Shown piece after piece: positions 10,545-51,524 of a DNA stretch of 64,000 nucleotides. The stretch is from Deltaproteobacteria bacterium. Its GTDB lineage: Bacteria > Bdellovibrionota > Bdellovibrionia > Bdellovibrionales > Bdellovibrionaceae. Position 1 is the stretch's first letter, and the number at the start of each line of letters is the position of its first letter. The stretch is taken from contig JABDFK010000001.1 of NCBI GenBank assembly GCA_013286585.1, positions 30,977-94,976 of the forward strand, in the 5' to 3' direction. The position numbers were made by a program, and so were the translations under genes. The notes under the pieces are model-generated. The model had not been told where the DNA came from, made no database searches, and saw nothing but the letters and a program-made list of their open reading frames with translations.

Positions 10545-10670
10545 GGTGCCTCCGATCAGTCAGCGATTGTGTGGACAAGTCAGCGTACACAACAATATCG
10601 TCGGTTATTTGACGGGACTTAACGCCCCGGTAACAAATAAGTCAGTTCCGGTCTTGCCTCTAGGAACAAT

Positions 10671-10699
10671 GATTTAGAGTGAGACAACGACTGTATCAA
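10671..10699 (-). promoter_or_regulatory. Candidate sigma70 promoter for the 10014..10544 gene
   Basis: Minus strand: -35 'TTGATA' (10699-10694), 17-nt spacer, -10 'TAAATC' (10676-10671). It lies between repeat copy 1 and the gene. Confidence 0.3.
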
Positions 10700-10721
10700 A
10701 CTTCGACAATCCCCTTGTAAA

Positions 10722-10871
10722 CGTGGGTCAATGAAGAGGTGGGGTATTTTAATTCCGGGGCCCACCCCTCCGTGGGTTCACCTGAATTTTTCACTGGGTA
10801 CAGTGAAAAAACGCGTCACGCTTTCAGGAGCGCCCTCCATTAAAACACCCCACCTCTTCATTGACCCAGTT
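10722..10871 (-). repeat. Structured repeat element, copy 1 (sense strand inferred from G-T wobble bias)
   Basis: Outer stem of 22 perfect bp ('TGGGTCAATGAAGAGGTGGGGT'/'ACCCCACCTCTTCATTGACCCA') that continues with one A-C mismatch. Conserved core 'GGGGCCCACCCCTCCGTGGGTTCACCTGAA', central hairpin 'TTTTTCACTG-GGTA-CAGTGAAAAA', then 'ACGCGTCACGCTTTCAGGAGCGCCC'. Confidence 0.8.
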
Positions 10872-10962
10872 GTGAGCAGGACAATTGCCGAAAAATGAAT
10901 GGTAGTTCCGTGCTCAGCACGCAAAGAACATCAGTCCTAAAAATCATTGCGGACACTTCGTG

Positions 10963-11115
10963 AACTGGGTTCTTTGGAGGGTGTGGTGCTTGGGTGGAGG
11001 GCGCTCCTGAAAGCGTGACGCGTTTTGTTTGACTGTACTCAGTCGAACAAATTCAGGTGAACCCAGGATGGGTGGGCCCCGTAACCCAAGCACCATACCC
11101 TCCAAAGAACCCACG
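10963..11115 (+). repeat. Structured repeat element, copy 2 (inverted relative to copy 1)
   Basis: Same core in reverse complement ('GGAGGGCGCTCCTGAAAGCGTGACGCGTTTT...AAATTCAGGTGAACCCAGGATGGGTGGGCCCCG'). Different 29-bp outer stem ('GGGTTCTTTGGAGGGTGTGGTGCTTGGGT'/'ACCCAAGCACCATACCCTCCAAAGAACCC') with one G-T pair. Confidence 0.8.
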
Positions 11116-11195
11116 GTTACAAGAAGAGTCCAGCATTGACTTTTAGAACAGATGATTTCACAACTGTGGGAGAGAAAGTTTTTTGAGGTTCGACG

Positions 11196-11501
11196 ATGCT
11201 GATTTCAAGATGGCAAGCCCCTACAATTCCTAGTCGCGATCAAATCATGATGCTTTTGGATCAGGAAGGTCTTGAGGGCATTGAGGAGCGCTTTGTTAGC
11301 GGCAATAAAATCGGTGAACATCGTCATCCTTTCACTGAGGTGCGGATTTTAATCGAGGGCGAGATGCTCTTTAATGTGAGTGGCAATCAGTTTTTGATTC
11401 GAGCTGGGGATCGTCTAGAAATTCCTGCCAATACGAAGCACTGGTTTCAGGCGCATGGTGAGGCCGATTGCCTCTGCGTTTACGCACAACGAGTGGTCTA
11501 G
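11196..11501 (+). CDS. Cupin-domain protein (101 aa)
   Basis: 'GEHRHPFTEVRILIEGEMLFNVSGNQFLIRAGDRLEIPANTKHWFQA' matches the two-motif cupin pattern (HxH...E / ...H). Confidence 0.75.
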   Translation: MLISRWQAPTIPSRDQIMMLLDQEGLEGIEERFVSGNKIGEHRHPFTEVRILIEGEMLFNVSGNQFLIRAGDRLEIPANTKHWFQAHGEADCLCVYAQRVV

Positions 11502-28089: not shown

Positions 28090-28770
28090 TCATTTTATCA
28101 GAGAGAAAAGGCGATCTCGACGCACTTCTGGAAGACGATTGTCCGCCCATTTTTTAGCCCAATCCAAGGACAGCCAAATCAGCTGAACCCGGCCCTCCAC
28201 CCGATCTATCGGCACAGTGCCCCAGTAACGCGAATCATCACTGGCATCACGATTGTCACCCATCAAAAAAATTTCCTGCGGCGGGACAACCAGAGGCCCG
28301 AAGGACTTGGCGTGAGGCCCTTTTTTGCGCAAAATCGTACGGGGGCCTTCTTGGGCCTGCTCGGTCACTAGCTCAAATTCATCCGGAGTTTGCAGTCCCG
28401 CCACCTGTGCCTGCGCATATTCCATCTTCTTGCCATTGATGCTGAGTTCACCGTTGACGATCTCGATGCGGTCGCCCGGAAGACCGATGACTCTTTTGAC
28501 GTAATTGACGTTGGGCTGCTCTGGAAAAGTAAAAACCACGACCTCGCCTCGAAGCGGGGAATTCACCACCCACTTGCTTTGCGCCAGAGGCAGCTTGATC
28601 CCGTAAGGCAGGCGATAGGCGAAAATAAAATCACCAGGAAGAAGTGTGGGTGACATGGAACTGGTCGGCACTCGGTATCCGGTCCAAATAAATGTTCGAA
28701 CGAATAGCGCCAAGAAAATCGCTACCAAAATATTTTCGAAATAGTCCCGCCAGAGCTTTCTTTGAAGCAT
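28090..28770 (-). CDS. lepB: Signal peptidase I, paralog 4 of 4 in transcription order
   Basis: ORF extends to 28839; preferred start MLQRKLW (28770). Catalytic Ser box 'PTSSMSPTLLPGD', Lys box 'VKRVIGLPGD', 'GDNRDASDDSRYWG'. Confidence 0.85.
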   Translation of the reverse strand: MLQRKLWRDYFENILVAIFLALFVRTFIWTGYRVPTSSMSPTLLPGDFIFAYRLPYGIKLPLAQSKWVVNSPLRGEVVVFTFPEQPNVNYVKRVIGLPGDRIEIVNGELSINGKKMEYAQAQVAGLQTPDEFELVTEQAQEGPRTILRKKGPHAKSFGPLVVPPQEIFLMGDNRDASDDSRYWGTVPIDRVEGRVQLIWLSLDWAKKWADNRLPEVRRDRLFSLIK

Positions 28771-28787
28771 AGGCCTATCTTGTCTCT

Positions 28788-29468
28788 TTATCGAACTCCA
28801 AGCAAGAGGCGATTCCACCGAATTGTGCTGGGATCGCACAAAAAACTGGCGGAGGGCAAAGTTTTCTCACAAGCCAGCCACACCCGCTGCACCGATCCGA
28901 CAAAATTTTCCTCTGGCACAAATCCCCAAACCCGTGAATCGGAGGATTGATCGCGATTATCACCCATGGCGAAATACATTCCTTGTGGAACTTTGACACT
29001 CGCGTAAGAAGCGATTTCGTGATCTAAATAGCGCACCAGGTGTCCCGATTCTTTGAAATATTCAAAGCGATCGTCGGCATCGGACGGACGCTCCACTGGC
29101 TGCAACTCTTGCCGCTGCCCATTCACTGAAAGAATTCCGTGATCCAGTTGCAGCTCGTCGCCGGGAAGAGCGACAATGCGCTTCACAAAATACACTTCCG
29201 GGGTCTCTGGATAGCGAAAAACAGCAATGTCCCCACGTTTGGGATTCGACCAATGCAAAATCCATTTTTTTGAAAATGGCACATGAATTCCGTAGACCAT
29301 CTTATTGGCGATGATGTGATCGTGAATCAACAGCGTGGGAATCATGCTGCCAGAAGGCACGACGAAAGGTTCTATGATCAGCCAACGCACTCCGATCACC
29401 AATGCCAACGGCCCAAAAAACGTGAATAGCGCTTGAGGCCAAGTGGCGCGGAGATCTTTTTTCATCAA
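28788..29468 (-). CDS. lepB: Signal peptidase I, paralog 3 of 4
   Basis: 'PSGSMIPTLLIHD', 'VKRIVALPGD', 'GDNRDQSSDSRVWG'. ATGA overlap with the upstream paralog. Confidence 0.9.
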   Translation of the reverse strand: MMKKDLRATWPQALFTFFGPLALVIGVRWLIIEPFVVPSGSMIPTLLIHDHIIANKMVYGIHVPFSKKWILHWSNPKRGDIAVFRYPETPEVYFVKRIVALPGDELQLDHGILSVNGQRQELQPVERPSDADDRFEYFKESGHLVRYLDHEIASYASVKVPQGMYFAMGDNRDQSSDSRVWGFVPEENFVGSVQRVWLACEKTLPSASFLCDPSTIRWNRLLLGVR

Positions 29469-30241
29469 TTCACAGCGTTGAGCAATCGACCCCAGCGAAC
29501 CGTCAATGGATTGCAGAGCACACCCACCACAGGCAACATCTCATCACAGGACAGCCAGATCAGACTTGCCCGGCCCAAAATATTCTCTTTGGGCATATAG
29601 CCCCAATAGCGGCTGTCGTTGGAGTTATGCCGATTATCACCCATCATGAACAAATAGCCTTCGGGAACTTTCACAGGGCCAAAGTGATCATCCGCGACGC
29701 CCTGGCGAAGCAGGACGCTATGCTCTTTGATTCCGCCGGTGACTTGAAGTTTTTCGATAAAGTGATCGTAGTGCATGAGCGAATCGTGACCTTCCTTATC
29801 CTGCTTGAAATCATAGTCCCGAATCTTCATGAACACTTCATTCTTAGGATCAGGAGTTCGCTCTTGCGCCACATCGTTGATGTAGAGAGTACCGGCATCG
29901 AACGCGATCTTATCGCCAGGCACGCCCACCACTCGTTTGATCAGAAAAGTTCCCATTTCGTTCGGATGTTTGAAGACGATGATCTCTCCGCGTTCGGGCT
30001 CTTTGAATTTCACTAGCCAGTTTTCGCTGAAGGGAACTCGCAGTCCATAGACCAATTTGTTCACGAAGATATGATCGTTGATCAACAGCGATGGCAGCAT
30101 ACTGCCCGTGGGAATCACATAGGATTCAAACAGACCCCAGCGGATGGTGAGTGCCGCCAAGATCGCCAAGGCCAAACCACCCCAGCCGTCTTTCCAAAAT
30201 TCTCTGCTCTTGACGTTAAAGTTTGAGTAATTGTTGGCCAT
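29465..30241 (-). CDS. lepB: Signal peptidase I, paralog 2 of 4
   Basis: '[19 protein letters not shown]', '[10 protein letters not shown]', 'GDNRHNSNDSRYWG'. Confidence 0.9.
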   Translation of the reverse strand: MANNYSNFNVKSREFWKDGWGGLALAILAALTIRWGLFESYVIPTGSMLPSLLINDHIFVNKLVYGLRVPFSENWLVKFKEPERGEIIVFKHPNEMGTFLIKRVVGVPGDKIAFDAGTLYINDVAQERTPDPKNEVFMKIRDYDFKQDKEGHDSLMHYDHFIEKLQVTGGIKEHSVLLRQGVADDHFGPVKVPEGYLFMMGDNRHNSNDSRYWGYMPKENILGRASLIWLSCDEMLPVVGVLCNPLTVRWGRLLNAVN

Positions 30242-30249
30242 ATTCCCCC

Positions 30250-31002
30250 TTAATTAACCACATGTCCAAAACGCTTCCAACGAATGGTCGTTGGATTGCA
30301 GATCACACTGACAACAGGCAAAGTTTCTTCGCAAGAAAGCCAGACGAAGCTAGCCCGACCTAAAATATTTTGCTCTGGCAGAAATCCCCACACCCGGCTG
30401 TCGTGGGAGTTATTGCGATTGTCACCCATGACGAAAAGATGTCCTTCGGGAACGACCACCGGGCCGAATTTGTCGTAGATATCCCCACGACGAAGCAAGA
30501 TGCTATGGTCGATAGGGCCCGGCAATGTTTCGGTGAAGTGCACATAGTTTTCTTTGCTATCGTAGGCGTTCACTTCGCGCTGAAAGTCCGCATCCCGAAG
30601 CCACAGATAATCTTCGGAAGTGAGCGGAACTTTCTTTTCCATGGCCTGATCATTGACGAATAATGTGCCCTGTTCGTAGGCGATTTTATCGCCCGGCACA
30701 CCCACCACTCGTTTGATGAAAAAAGTGGACGGGTCGCGGGGATATTTAAACACCACGACTTCACCGCGCTTAGGATCAGAAAATTTGGCCAGCCATTTTT
30801 CGGTGAAGGGAACGCGCAAACCATAGACGAATTTGTTCACAAAGATATGGTCATGGATCAAGAGAGAGGGAAGCATGCTGCCCGACGGAATCACATAGGC
30901 TTCAAAGAAGGCCCAGCGAATGAACATGGCAAAAACGATCGCCACGGCCAGGGAGCCCCAGCCTTCGGTCCAAAATTTTTTCTCCCGCCAACCGTACTTC
31001 AA
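30250..31002 (-). CDS. lepB: Signal peptidase I, paralog 1 of 4
   Basis: '[19 protein letters not shown]', '[10 protein letters not shown]', '[14 protein letters not shown]'. Start overlaps the lepA stop (ATGA). Confidence 0.9.
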
Positions 31003-47357: not shown

Positions 47358-49078
47358 CTTTGGTTTCCAAGATAGTGATAATTTCCAATTTCATCCAACC
47401 AGTATTCGCCGTCAAACGGCCAATACTCATAACCATTTTGTGCATACACACTGCGATCGATATTATCGTTCAGCATCACCTTCGGAGCATCTTTTCCAGC
47501 GATGCGTTTTTTCAAGACTTCTTTTTCACCATTGATCATCTCATAGCGAATGAAGCTGGCTTGCTCGTATTGATCCTTGAGCTCGGCCCGCATCTCCAGA
47601 AGATGCGCTTTGGTCATCTCACCAATGAAGATCTTAGCGTTCTTATAGCGATTGCCCAGAATTTTTCGACCAACAGCTCCCATCGGCGAACGAGAGATGT
47701 TGGGCATAGAATCCAGTTTATTTTTTTCATCATTTAAAATTTTCAGATAGGCGAAGGCCCGTTTGACGTCACCCTCATGCAAAATCTGATTGTCCACTTT
47801 CAGTGGCAATTTCGTTCGACCAGGGCGACCCAAGCGAATATTATTCGCTTGATCCACTTCATTATAGAAAGCCACTGGATCCGAGTTATTGGACATAAAG
47901 CCACTCATCTGGGCCCGAATAGGCCCATAAGTTTTTTCAAACAGATCCAAAACTTTAGCCATCTCATCATATTTACATACATATAGATAGACGATGGATC
48001 TTAGCAGCAAGGACTCTGGCAAAAAGAAGTCTTCGTAATAGGCCGAATGCAAAGACTGAAAGTTACTGAGCGCACTACGAAATCGCGCCGCTCTGACCAG
48101 GGCCCAAGAAGATTCAAACAAGGCCTCATGCCAGAGCGGATGATCCCGCGGAATCTCCCGATAAGTGGCAATAGAATTTTCCCAGTCCGTGGCCTGATAA
48201 TAAGCCCGCGCCAAACCCAACTGGGCCACGACACGATTTGTATCGGTGACGTAAGCATTCGCCCGATATCCGACCAAAGCTTTGTAAGTAGAAATAGCCT
48301 CTTGAGGCTTCCCCTCTTCCAAAAGCGCCAAACCCTTGTTCACCCTAGAGAGGAAAAAGTAACGACTGCCTTCAGGCACCCGGCCAAATAAATCCAAAGC
48401 CTGAGACAACTGCCCAGCCTTCAGCTTGACCTCACCCAGGCGAAAATAAATCAAATCCTTACTAGCGGCAGGAATGTCCTCAATTTTTATGCGAGAAACC
48501 GCATAATTCAAAAGAGTATCATCACCCAACTGATCCGCAGCCAAAGACAATTTCTCAATGGCCTGACGAACATAGTGACTATTCCCATTCTTAATCACCT
48601 CAACAAACTGAAAAGCAGCAATCTGATTCAGCCCCAGATCCATCAAAGCCGATCCCAAAATATATTTGATCTGCATTTTCTCGCGCTCAAATTCCGACCG
48701 ACGAGAAAGCGAATAAAGAAGCGGAACAGCAGCCTGATACTGCCCACTCTGAACCATCTTCAAAGCCGAAGCCAACTGCGAAGCCGCCGCCGGCGAAAGC
48801 GAAGCGGCCGAAGGCACGCTCACCGGAGCCTGAGGAGCCACCTTAGTTTTCTTAGTAGTCTTATACTGGCCTTCCCCAAAAGAAGAACCGCAAATCAAAC
48901 CAAGAACTACAATTAATCCCAAAGAACGCCGCCCAAAGCAAAAAACGCGAAACAAAAGGCCCGCAGCCGAGGCGAGAGGAAGCGAACGCGGAGGCCTACT
49001 ACTGTAGGCCGCACAAGTGAGCGACCGAACAACGAAGGATCCGGGCATTTTGTTTTGTGTTTTTACTACGTTTATCAT
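47348..49078 (-). CDS. TPR-repeat protein (GltC-like), 576 aa
   Basis: ATGA overlap with the upstream beta-barrel gene. Hydrophobic segment 'LGLIVVLGLICGSS', then TPR-like repeats. The start is uncertain because the N-terminal region is Arg-rich. Confidence 0.6.
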   Translation of the reverse strand: MINVVKTQNKMPGSFVVRSLTCAAYSSRPPRSLPLASAAGLLFRVFCFGRRSLGLIVVLGLICGSSFGEGQYKTTKKTKVAPQAPVSVPSAASLSPAAASQLASALKMVQSGQYQAAVPLLYSLSRRSEFEREKMQIKYILGSALMDLGLNQIAAFQFVEVIKNGNSHYVRQAIEKLSLAADQLGDDTLLNYAVSRIKIEDIPAASKDLIYFRLGEVKLKAGQLSQALDLFGRVPEGSRYFFLSRVNKGLALLEEGKPQEAISTYKALVGYRANAYVTDTNRVVAQLGLARAYYQATDWENSIATYREIPRDHPLWHEALFESSWALVRAARFRSALSNFQSLHSAYYEDFFLPESLLLRSIVYLYVCKYDEMAKVLDLFEKTYGPIRAQMSGFMSNNSDPVAFYNEVDQANNIRLGRPGRTKLPLKVDNQILHEGDVKRAFAYLKILNDEKNKLDSMPNISRSPMGAVGRKILGNRYKNAKIFIGEMTKAHLLEMRAELKDQYEQASFIRYEMINGEKEVLKKRIAGKDAPKVMLNDNIDRSVYAQNGYEYWPFDGEYWLDEIGNYHYLGNQSCE

Positions 49079-51364: not shown

Positions 51365-51524
51365 CGTGGGTCCAATCGGGGGATGGGTAGATGTTCCGAG
51401 ACAGGGGCCCACCCCTCCGTGGGTTCACGCGGAATTTTTTAAATGAGTACATTTAAAAAAACGCGTCACGCTTTCCGGAGCCCCTGCCTCGGAACATCTA
51501 CCCATCCCCCGATTGGACACAGTT
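51365..51524 (-). repeat. Structured repeat element, copy 3
   Basis: 31-bp perfect outer stem ('GTCCAATCGGGGGATGGGTAGATGTTCCGAG'/'CTCGGAACATCTACCCATCCCCCGATTGGAC'). Same core 'GGGGCCCACCCCTCCGTGGGTTCAC', hairpin 'TTTTTTAAATG-AGTA-CATTTAAAAAA', then 'ACGCGTCACGCTTTCCGGAGCCCC'. Confidence 0.8.

Follow-up and report, generated by a model that had tools for sequence, protein, structure and literature searches.

A hairpin repeat with a conserved branched core and variable self-complementary arms in Bdellovibrionota: mobile element or structured RNA?

Two inverted copies of a structured repeat lie between divergent genes in a 64-kb stretch of Bdellovibrionota DNA (the whole of which we call the window), and a third copy lies elsewhere in it. 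What kind of element is this repeat, which we named R1? A first-pass annotation, made from the letters alone, had proposed a new non-coding RNA (ncRNA) or a mobile hairpin family. Our evidence leans towards the mobile, selfish side of this proposal, although sequence alone does not decide between the two. We give about an even chance to R1 being a lineage-restricted, non-autonomous mobile palindromic repeat of the REPIN/MITE kind, in which the conserved core is unusual. We favour this reading because the architecture is recurrent, the family is restricted to one lineage and absent from the syntenic site of relatives, transcription signals are lacking, and a sister element coincides with a disrupted gene.

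Anatomy of the repeat

The three copies that had been claimed were all located: copy 1 at 10722-10871 on the plus strand, copy 2 inverted at 10963-11115 on the minus strand, and copy 3 at 51365-51524 on the plus strand. A covariance model built from these three copies themselves and run with filters off retrieved only them in the window, at 145-165 bits (164.5, 165.3 and 144.8 for copies 1, 2 and 3), the next match scoring at most 10 bits. Two core motifs also occur exactly three times each in the 64 kb. Copies 1 and 2 are separated by a spacer of 91 nt (10872-10962, unstranded), which occurs once in the window, as BLAST matches it only to itself. This pair had been described as head-to-head. 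Read in the copy-1 orientation, it is tail-to-tail, with the two 3' ends pointing at one another, and only the sense orientation inferred in the annotation makes it head-to-head.

The predicted fold of every copy is one long hairpin, branched at its apex. The predicted energies are -80.6, -87.7 and -104.6 kcal/mol for copies 1, 2 and 3, with z-scores of -10.2, -10.9 and -11.6 relative to 200 dinucleotide shuffles, none of which folds as well as the copies. The annotation rightly recognized that the ends and the core are conserved while the outer stems vary and remain self-complementary. In the model-fitted alignment, the terminal 7-8 nt (the ends being CGTGGGT and ACCCAGTT) are 93-100% identical among copies, and the outer arms show a mere 38-44% identity. 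The core of about 85 nt is 87-91% identical (BLAST). Within each copy the two arms are 95-97% complementary over 30-42 nt, i.e. there is one mismatch per 30-42 bp, and arm length varies between copies symmetrically on both sides. For example, the 30-nt 5' arm of copy 1 (10724-10753, plus strand) pairs with the 3' arm (10839-10868, plus strand) at 97% complementarity, and between them lies the branched core of the predicted fold (10757-10838, plus strand).

The core has a first hairpin, CCCAC/GTGGG with the loop CCCTCC, and an inner helix that reads CCTGAA/TTCAGG, or CGGAA/TTCCG in copy 3. Inside this helix there is a central hairpin with a conserved loop, G/AGTA, on a stem that is different in every copy (10787-10810 with the loop GGTA in copy 1), and a mini-hairpin GCG-TCA-CGC (10813-10821 in copy 1). 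The core also carries the short DNA palindromes GGGCCC and ACGCGT. The repeat may have an unpaired 5' extension, a weak signal read from the sequence: CTTGTAAA in copy 1 (10714-10721, plus strand), its counterpart CTTGTAAC in copy 2 (11116-11123, minus strand) and CTTTTA..A in copy 3.

Pairing maintained in diverged arms

In the fitted alignment 96.3% of the cells are paired, against 82.3 +/- 2.2 in shuffles, and this value falls to 28-49% when the register is slid. Both partners changed in 20 of the 56 predicted pairs, against 7.3 in shuffles; these counts come from three sequences, hence they are not a formal covariation test. The double changes sit in the outer stem (18 pairs) and in the central hairpin (2 pairs). 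Compensatory change had been claimed for three helices, and we recover it in these two, while the inner-helix swap of copy 3 (CTGAA/TTCAG to CGGAA/TTCCG) is visible only after a one-base register shift. The self-complementarity of the arms, which are near saturation in their divergence, is unambiguous. Near-perfect pairing and symmetric changes of length suggest either strong selection on the hairpin or self-templating of one arm from the other, both of which account for them more easily than the ordinary drift of an RNA does; we count this in favour of a mobile element.

The contrast between core and arms points the other way. A core far better conserved than its arms is the pattern of a functional RNA, not of a decaying selfish repeat. 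R1 could be a small family of structured ncRNA genes, or RNA modules co-transcribed with their neighbours, which is the main alternative and in our view less likely than a mobile element. The core would be the functional RNA, e.g. a module that binds a protein or mimics a Shine-Dalgarno or anti-Shine-Dalgarno sequence. The long perfect stem, free in sequence, would be a double-stranded processing or stabilizing element, e.g. a substrate of RNase III from which the core is released or by which it is protected. The conserved loops and junctions, together with three co-varying helices, agree with this possibility.

So does the distribution of wobble pairs between strands. All four mismatches in the long helices of R1 are G-U on the strand opposite to the copy-1 orientation and A-C on the other. 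This G-U-tolerant strand is predicted to be more stable by 4-11 kcal/mol in every copy (-84.8, -98.3 and -111.5 kcal/mol for copies 1, 2 and 3). It runs co-directionally with the nearest downstream gene in all three copies, in line with the earlier claim that each copy points towards its neighbouring gene in the inferred sense orientation; this is expected of an RNA and speaks against a mobile element. In the first core hairpin it presents a loop with GGA, within CACGGAGGGGUG in copies 1 and 3 and CCAGGAUGG in copy 2, another feature that would suit an RNA; on the copy-1-orientation strand the same loop is CCCUCC. The four-out-of-four bias that the annotation reported holds in the long helices but not elsewhere. 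On the copy-1-orientation strand a conserved G-U closes the first core hairpin. Copy 2 has a possible extra G-U pair that lengthens a short GGG/CCC helix. The annotation took the bias to favour mildly a constraint at the level of RNA. The bias is real but weak (4/4, two-sided p about 0.125, a value that ignores the conserved G-U on the other strand), and we regard it as suggestive only. G-T is the best-tolerated mismatch in DNA hairpins.

Neighbouring genes and promoter-like sequences

Copies 1 and 2 occupy the divergent region between a gene for a hypothetical protein of 176 aa and a cupin gene. For copy 3 the neighbours, both on the minus strand, are a TIGR02147/DUF4423 gene, whose stop faces the repeat, and a gene for a KdsC-like HAD phosphatase, whose start does. 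A repeat in several copies that is strictly intergenic, occurs in both orientations and includes an inverted doublet is what one would expect of a mobile element. Positions near promoters and between operon genes, the low known copy number and the two palindromes of the core could also reflect a host signal acting in cis, as DNA or RNA, that is immobile and was duplicated a few times by ordinary recombination. Such a signal might bind a nucleoid or regulatory protein, act as an insulator by forming a cruciform, or stabilize mRNA 3' ends. We consider this improbable, as ordinary duplication leaves the near-saturated yet perfectly paired arms unexplained, the flanking genes of R1 have no functional theme in common, and the relatives described below show no conservation of the repeat.

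The window is made of housekeeping DNA, with an rRNA operon, pilMNOPQ, carAB, lepA, metK, rpoN and polA, and it also encodes lpt and exbBD/tolQR-type genes. We found no transposase, RAYT, integrase, reverse transcriptase or Y1 enzyme encoded in its 64 kb, nor a parent insertion sequence or transposase with ends matching R1. Together with a number of known copies limited to three, this weighs against mobility. Four tandem paralogues of signal peptidase I (Peptidase_S26) are encoded on the minus strand at 28090-31002, just downstream of lepA.

Consensus scans, which covered promoters of the sigma70 type only, revealed neither a promoter nor a terminator framing any copy. The sigma70-like boxes that had been placed between the copies and their genes were not called. 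Between copy 1 and the 176-aa gene, outside the repeat, there is a sigma28-like box, TAAGT-N12-CCGACGAT (10597-10623, minus strand), about 53 nt upstream of the TTG start. It is conserved in L028 and L033, two relatives whose RarA is 74% identical to that of the window. We take it to resemble a sigma28/FliA promoter, an assignment drawn from the known consensus. Because the box is located between copy 1 and the gene, this copy would lie upstream of a promoter-like element and outside the 5' UTR. For copy 1, this putative box agrees with the suggestion that the copies may sit upstream of promoters rather than in 5' UTRs. The lack of framing signals and the position of copy 1 are as expected of a mobile element and count against an ncRNA or a co-transcribed module.

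Absence from relatives

Homologues of RarA assign the window to Bdellovibrionota: they are 74-77% identical to that of the window in the nearest relatives, and 55-60% in Pseudobdellovibrionaceae and Bdellovibrio. In two relatives with the gene order carB...pilQ-rarA-cupin-hypothetical-rRNA there is no R1 member, and the covariance model found none in the syntenic intergenic region. The region between the cupin and hypothetical genes measures 260 nt in L028 and 651 nt in the window, and this difference of 391 nt is close to the 394 nt of the block formed by the R1 pair. The alignment of these regions is good only in their promoter-proximal parts. It is too poor to read the exact ends of an insertion, which weakens the case for mobility. 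R1 is also absent from the contigs of relatives that carry orthologues of the DUF4423 gene. In total, the relatives supplied about 75 kb of unique DNA, in which the covariance model had no match; at the density of the window about 3.5 members would be expected there. The shorter syntenic site and the 75 kb lacking a member support a mobile element, and the same lack of conservation is hard to reconcile with an ncRNA family.

We then searched for the core more broadly. Scans with the exact pattern GGGCCCACCC-N35-60-ACGCGTCACGC and its variants returned 8, 13, 5 and 0 stretches from the GTDB genomes, JGI metagenomes and viral contigs. These are chance matches, in unrelated and mostly high-GC DNA. 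Because no member turned up in these collections, R1 is probably a young, lineage-specific family, as its sequence distribution points to, and this too argues for mobility. If the scanned GTDB collection includes the rest of the source genome, there is no further copy with an intact core in it; in that case the weight would shift towards an RNA gene. Contigs of the same organism in Logan break inside copies 2 and 3. We rejected the idea that these breaks reveal a high copy number, since the three known copies suffice to produce them.

None of the known families that we searched accounts for R1, in agreement with the earlier remark that the core belongs to no recognized RNA family. At gathering thresholds, cmscan of the window with Rfam 15 gave only rRNA and tRNA matches, which goes against an ncRNA, and Y-RNA, CsrB-like RNA and ribozymes were discarded, as no Rfam family of these kinds matches. 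With an E-value threshold, the best matches in the region 10600-11250 were plant miRNA precursors, at 26-31 bits against gathering thresholds of 120-130; they reflect generic long hairpins. Copy 1 had no BLAST match in plasmid and phage collections. A protein search with the concatenated six-frame translations of the three copies, aimed at spurious open reading frames called on other R1 copies, gave nothing at E <= 10. The arms, considered as candidate guides, match only themselves within the window. Our literature searches found no description of R1-like repeats in Bdellovibrionota.

A sister family in a related genome

L033 (ERZ12293588 scaffold_319) carries two hairpin elements, E1 and E2, that differ from R1 in sequence and are alike in build. 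E1 (L033:11523-11664) has arms of 39 nt that are 97% self-complementary and a predicted fold of -106 kcal/mol (z -10.8). E2 (L033:3714-3879) has arms of 52 nt that are 100% self-complementary and a predicted fold of -121 kcal/mol (z -15.4). The two cores measure 62-64 nt, show a clear relationship and have three hairpins with the loops AGGAG, AGGAT and AGGAA; the middle hairpin co-varies (TCGAAAGC/GCTTTCGA versus CTGGCC/GGCCAG). The arms of E1 and E2 have no sequence relation to each other. The combination of free, perfectly paired arms with a conserved branched core is thus a build that recurs in this clade.

The position of E1 is also informative. The cupin gene is intact in the window (11196-11501) and in L028, and is a pseudogene in L033 (11300-11510), where its N-terminal part of about 32 codons is replaced by an A10 run and the hairpin element. 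E1 sits where codons ~9-32, in the 5' third of the gene, are missing, and codons 33-101 are still 75-92% identical to those of orthologues. At the site of E2, most of the extra intergenic length of L033 relative to L028 is E2 itself. A sister family of like build with one member at a disrupted cupin gene favours a mobile element. Pairing that is perfect over 52 bp and a copy at a damaged gene are the behaviour of a selfish element, and argue against an RNA gene. The sister family has one arm mismatch, which adds no support of its own to the wobble bias, since the correspondence between its strand and that of R1 is uncertain.

The unrelated arms of E1 and E2 raise the question of whether the core alone is the element, the outer arms being an inverted duplication of host flanking DNA made at each insertion. 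By eye, one arm of E1 seemed similar to the missing cupin codons. When we aligned it locally with the cupin 5' region of L028 and of the window, 852 and 483 of 2000 shuffles scored at least as high, a match no better than shuffles, and we disfavour this origin of the arms. The R1 arms have no second match in the window, they keep residual similarity to each other, and the R1 termini outside them are conserved. The window also contains no core-less hairpin with R1 termini, a search designed to test insertion of the core into an older hairpin family. We therefore regard an origin of the arms from host flanks as very improbable.

A broader proposal is that R1 and E1/E2 represent an undescribed class of hairpin elements, with a cloverleaf-like core and hypervariable arms that are regenerated as perfect complements, distinct from REP/REPIN, MITE, attC and Rfam families. 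We think this unlikely. If true, it would imply either a new mode of single-strand mobilization with fold-back synthesis of the arms, or core RNAs excised from double-stranded stems that are free in sequence.

Comparison with known hairpin families

REP palindromes are 20-40 nt long. REPINs are REP doublets that form hairpins and are mobilized by RAYT (TnpA-REP), a Y1 transposase. Like REPINs, R1 is a short, intergenic, non-coding repeat that would fold as single-stranded DNA or RNA into one long hairpin, and it occurs in singlets and inverted clusters; REPINs need no target-site duplication. In REPINs conservation is confined to the two REP arms, which carry a GTAG or CGTC tag, and the spacer at the apex is variable, whereas R1 has variable arms around a conserved, non-palindromic branched core of about 85 nt; the copy number of R1 may also be very low. 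We found neither tag at the R1 ends, i.e. no tagged conserved palindrome as in REPs, and no RAYT gene accompanies R1 in the window. The annotation had set R1 apart from classical MITEs, which have sequence-conserved terminal inverted repeats. This is right, as R1 copies share 7-8 terminal bases, yet REPINs are mobile hairpins that undergo compensatory changes. A conserved apex and 7-8 conserved terminal bases with free arms make R1 the reverse of REPINs and MITEs. REPIN hairpins often show compensatory changes (PMC3116915), a precedent for a mobile element that keeps its hairpin in the way R1 does.

Like the Correia/CREE MITEs of Neisseria, R1 is intergenic, has a length in the range of 100-160 nt and has inverted ends around a conserved core. 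The terminal inverted repeats of Correia elements have the same sequence in different copies, and a TA duplication is described on their flanks. R1 differs in having only its 7-8 terminal bases conserved, with diverged arms, and no visible duplication. The flanks of the copies (TTGTAAA and GTGAGCA, TTGTAAC and CACGAAG, CTAGCA and CTGTTTT) contain no direct repeat, the ends being those that are apparent rather than fixed by alignment with an empty site. The lack of a visible target-site duplication is a point against mobility. Correia elements can be co-transcribed as hairpins, which RNase III binds or cleaves, and can affect neighbouring genes (PMC2649163). Because elements of this type are both mobile and active as RNA hairpins (PMC2649163), a mobile R1 and an RNA-active R1 are compatible.

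R1 shares with integron attC sites its short conserved ends and variable self-complementary arms. In attC sites these flank an apex that is sometimes branched, and the site acts as a folded single strand with a strand preference. The apex is variable in attC and conserved in R1. Unlike attC sites, R1 copies come with no integrase or cassette array, and are isolated or inverted 91 nt apart. We rejected an attC identity, as the R''/R' consensus RYYYAAC/GTTRRRY was found in neither orientation of any copy and no integrase domain was detected. The best candidates for such ends, TTGTAAC/GTTCACG and TGTAAAC/GTTGTGA, depart from this consensus, and their two halves do not complement each other. A retron ncRNA (msr-msd), which would sit directly upstream of a retron reverse transcriptase gene, was rejected as well, the neighbours being hypothetical, cupin, DUF4423 and KdsC-like genes with no reverse transcriptase in the window.

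The closest precedent for an RNA is given by the cuckoo RNAs of alphaproteobacteria, which occur in multiple copies and present conserved single-stranded CCUCCUCCC motifs on highly variable stems (PMC4615179). R1 resembles them in being multi-copy and in its conserved loop, CCCUCC on the copy-1-orientation strand. However, cuckoo RNAs consist of 2-4 adjacent hairpins and lack an enclosing stem of 30 bp, and R1 has no detected promoter or terminator and no Rfam match.

A candidate route of mobilization

If R1 is a mobile element, the unit of about 150 nt would spread, or would once have spread, within the genome. What we observe is the repeat, its fold, the covariation and the absence of R1 from the syntenic site and the surveyed DNA of relatives; mobility, a single-stranded intermediate and an enzyme are what we infer. 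The folded single strand would be what is kept, as DNA during mobilization and as RNA when co-transcribed. A trans-acting enzyme encoded elsewhere in the genome would recognize the branched core (about 85 nt) and the terminal 7-8 nt as its sequence-specific determinants, and the long outer stem would only juxtapose the termini. Because the stem need only bring the termini together, arm sequence would be free as long as the two arms remain complementary, either through compensatory change or with one arm as the template of the other.

The consequences differ between the readings. A mobile R1 would point to an unrecognized mechanism of recognition and mobilization in Bdellovibrionota, while an RNA would represent a new family of structured RNAs that carry their own double-stranded stem for processing. 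In either case the R1 elements of the window break short-read assemblies, and elements of this build can coincide with gene damage, as E1 does in the cupin gene of a relative. Both effects matter for annotation and for the quality of metagenome-assembled genomes in this group.

Other repeats in the same genomes

The presence of a second small palindromic repeat family in the genome fits with a mobile R1. This family is GC-rich and unrelated to R1, and has one copy at 48945-49055 and another at L034:1-70, about 330-400 nt past the right end of the window. The two copies share GCCCGCAGCCGAGGCG...GAACGCGGAGGC, and their central hairpin co-varies (GGCCTAC/GTAGGCC versus GGCGTGC/GCACGCC). The window copy lies between two minus-strand operon genes and has a fold z-score of -4.9.

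Two further resemblances concern the R1 and E1/E2 sequences. The central hairpin of copy 3, TTTTAAATGAGTACATTT (51437-51454), matches an E2 arm at L033:3733-3750 in 17 of 18 bases (with a small database, E 0.019); either chance in AT-rich sequence or a remnant of common descent would explain this. In another relative, an imperfect inverted repeat of about 160 nt with a weak fold (z -3.1) occupies an intergenic position at L035:3238-3396 (JGI 3300050235). It ends in CTTGTAAAG/CTTTACAAG, similar to the CTTGTAA(A/C) found next to copies 1 and 2, and it contains CTCTCCCCGCCGC, which is identical to the inner arm of E1.
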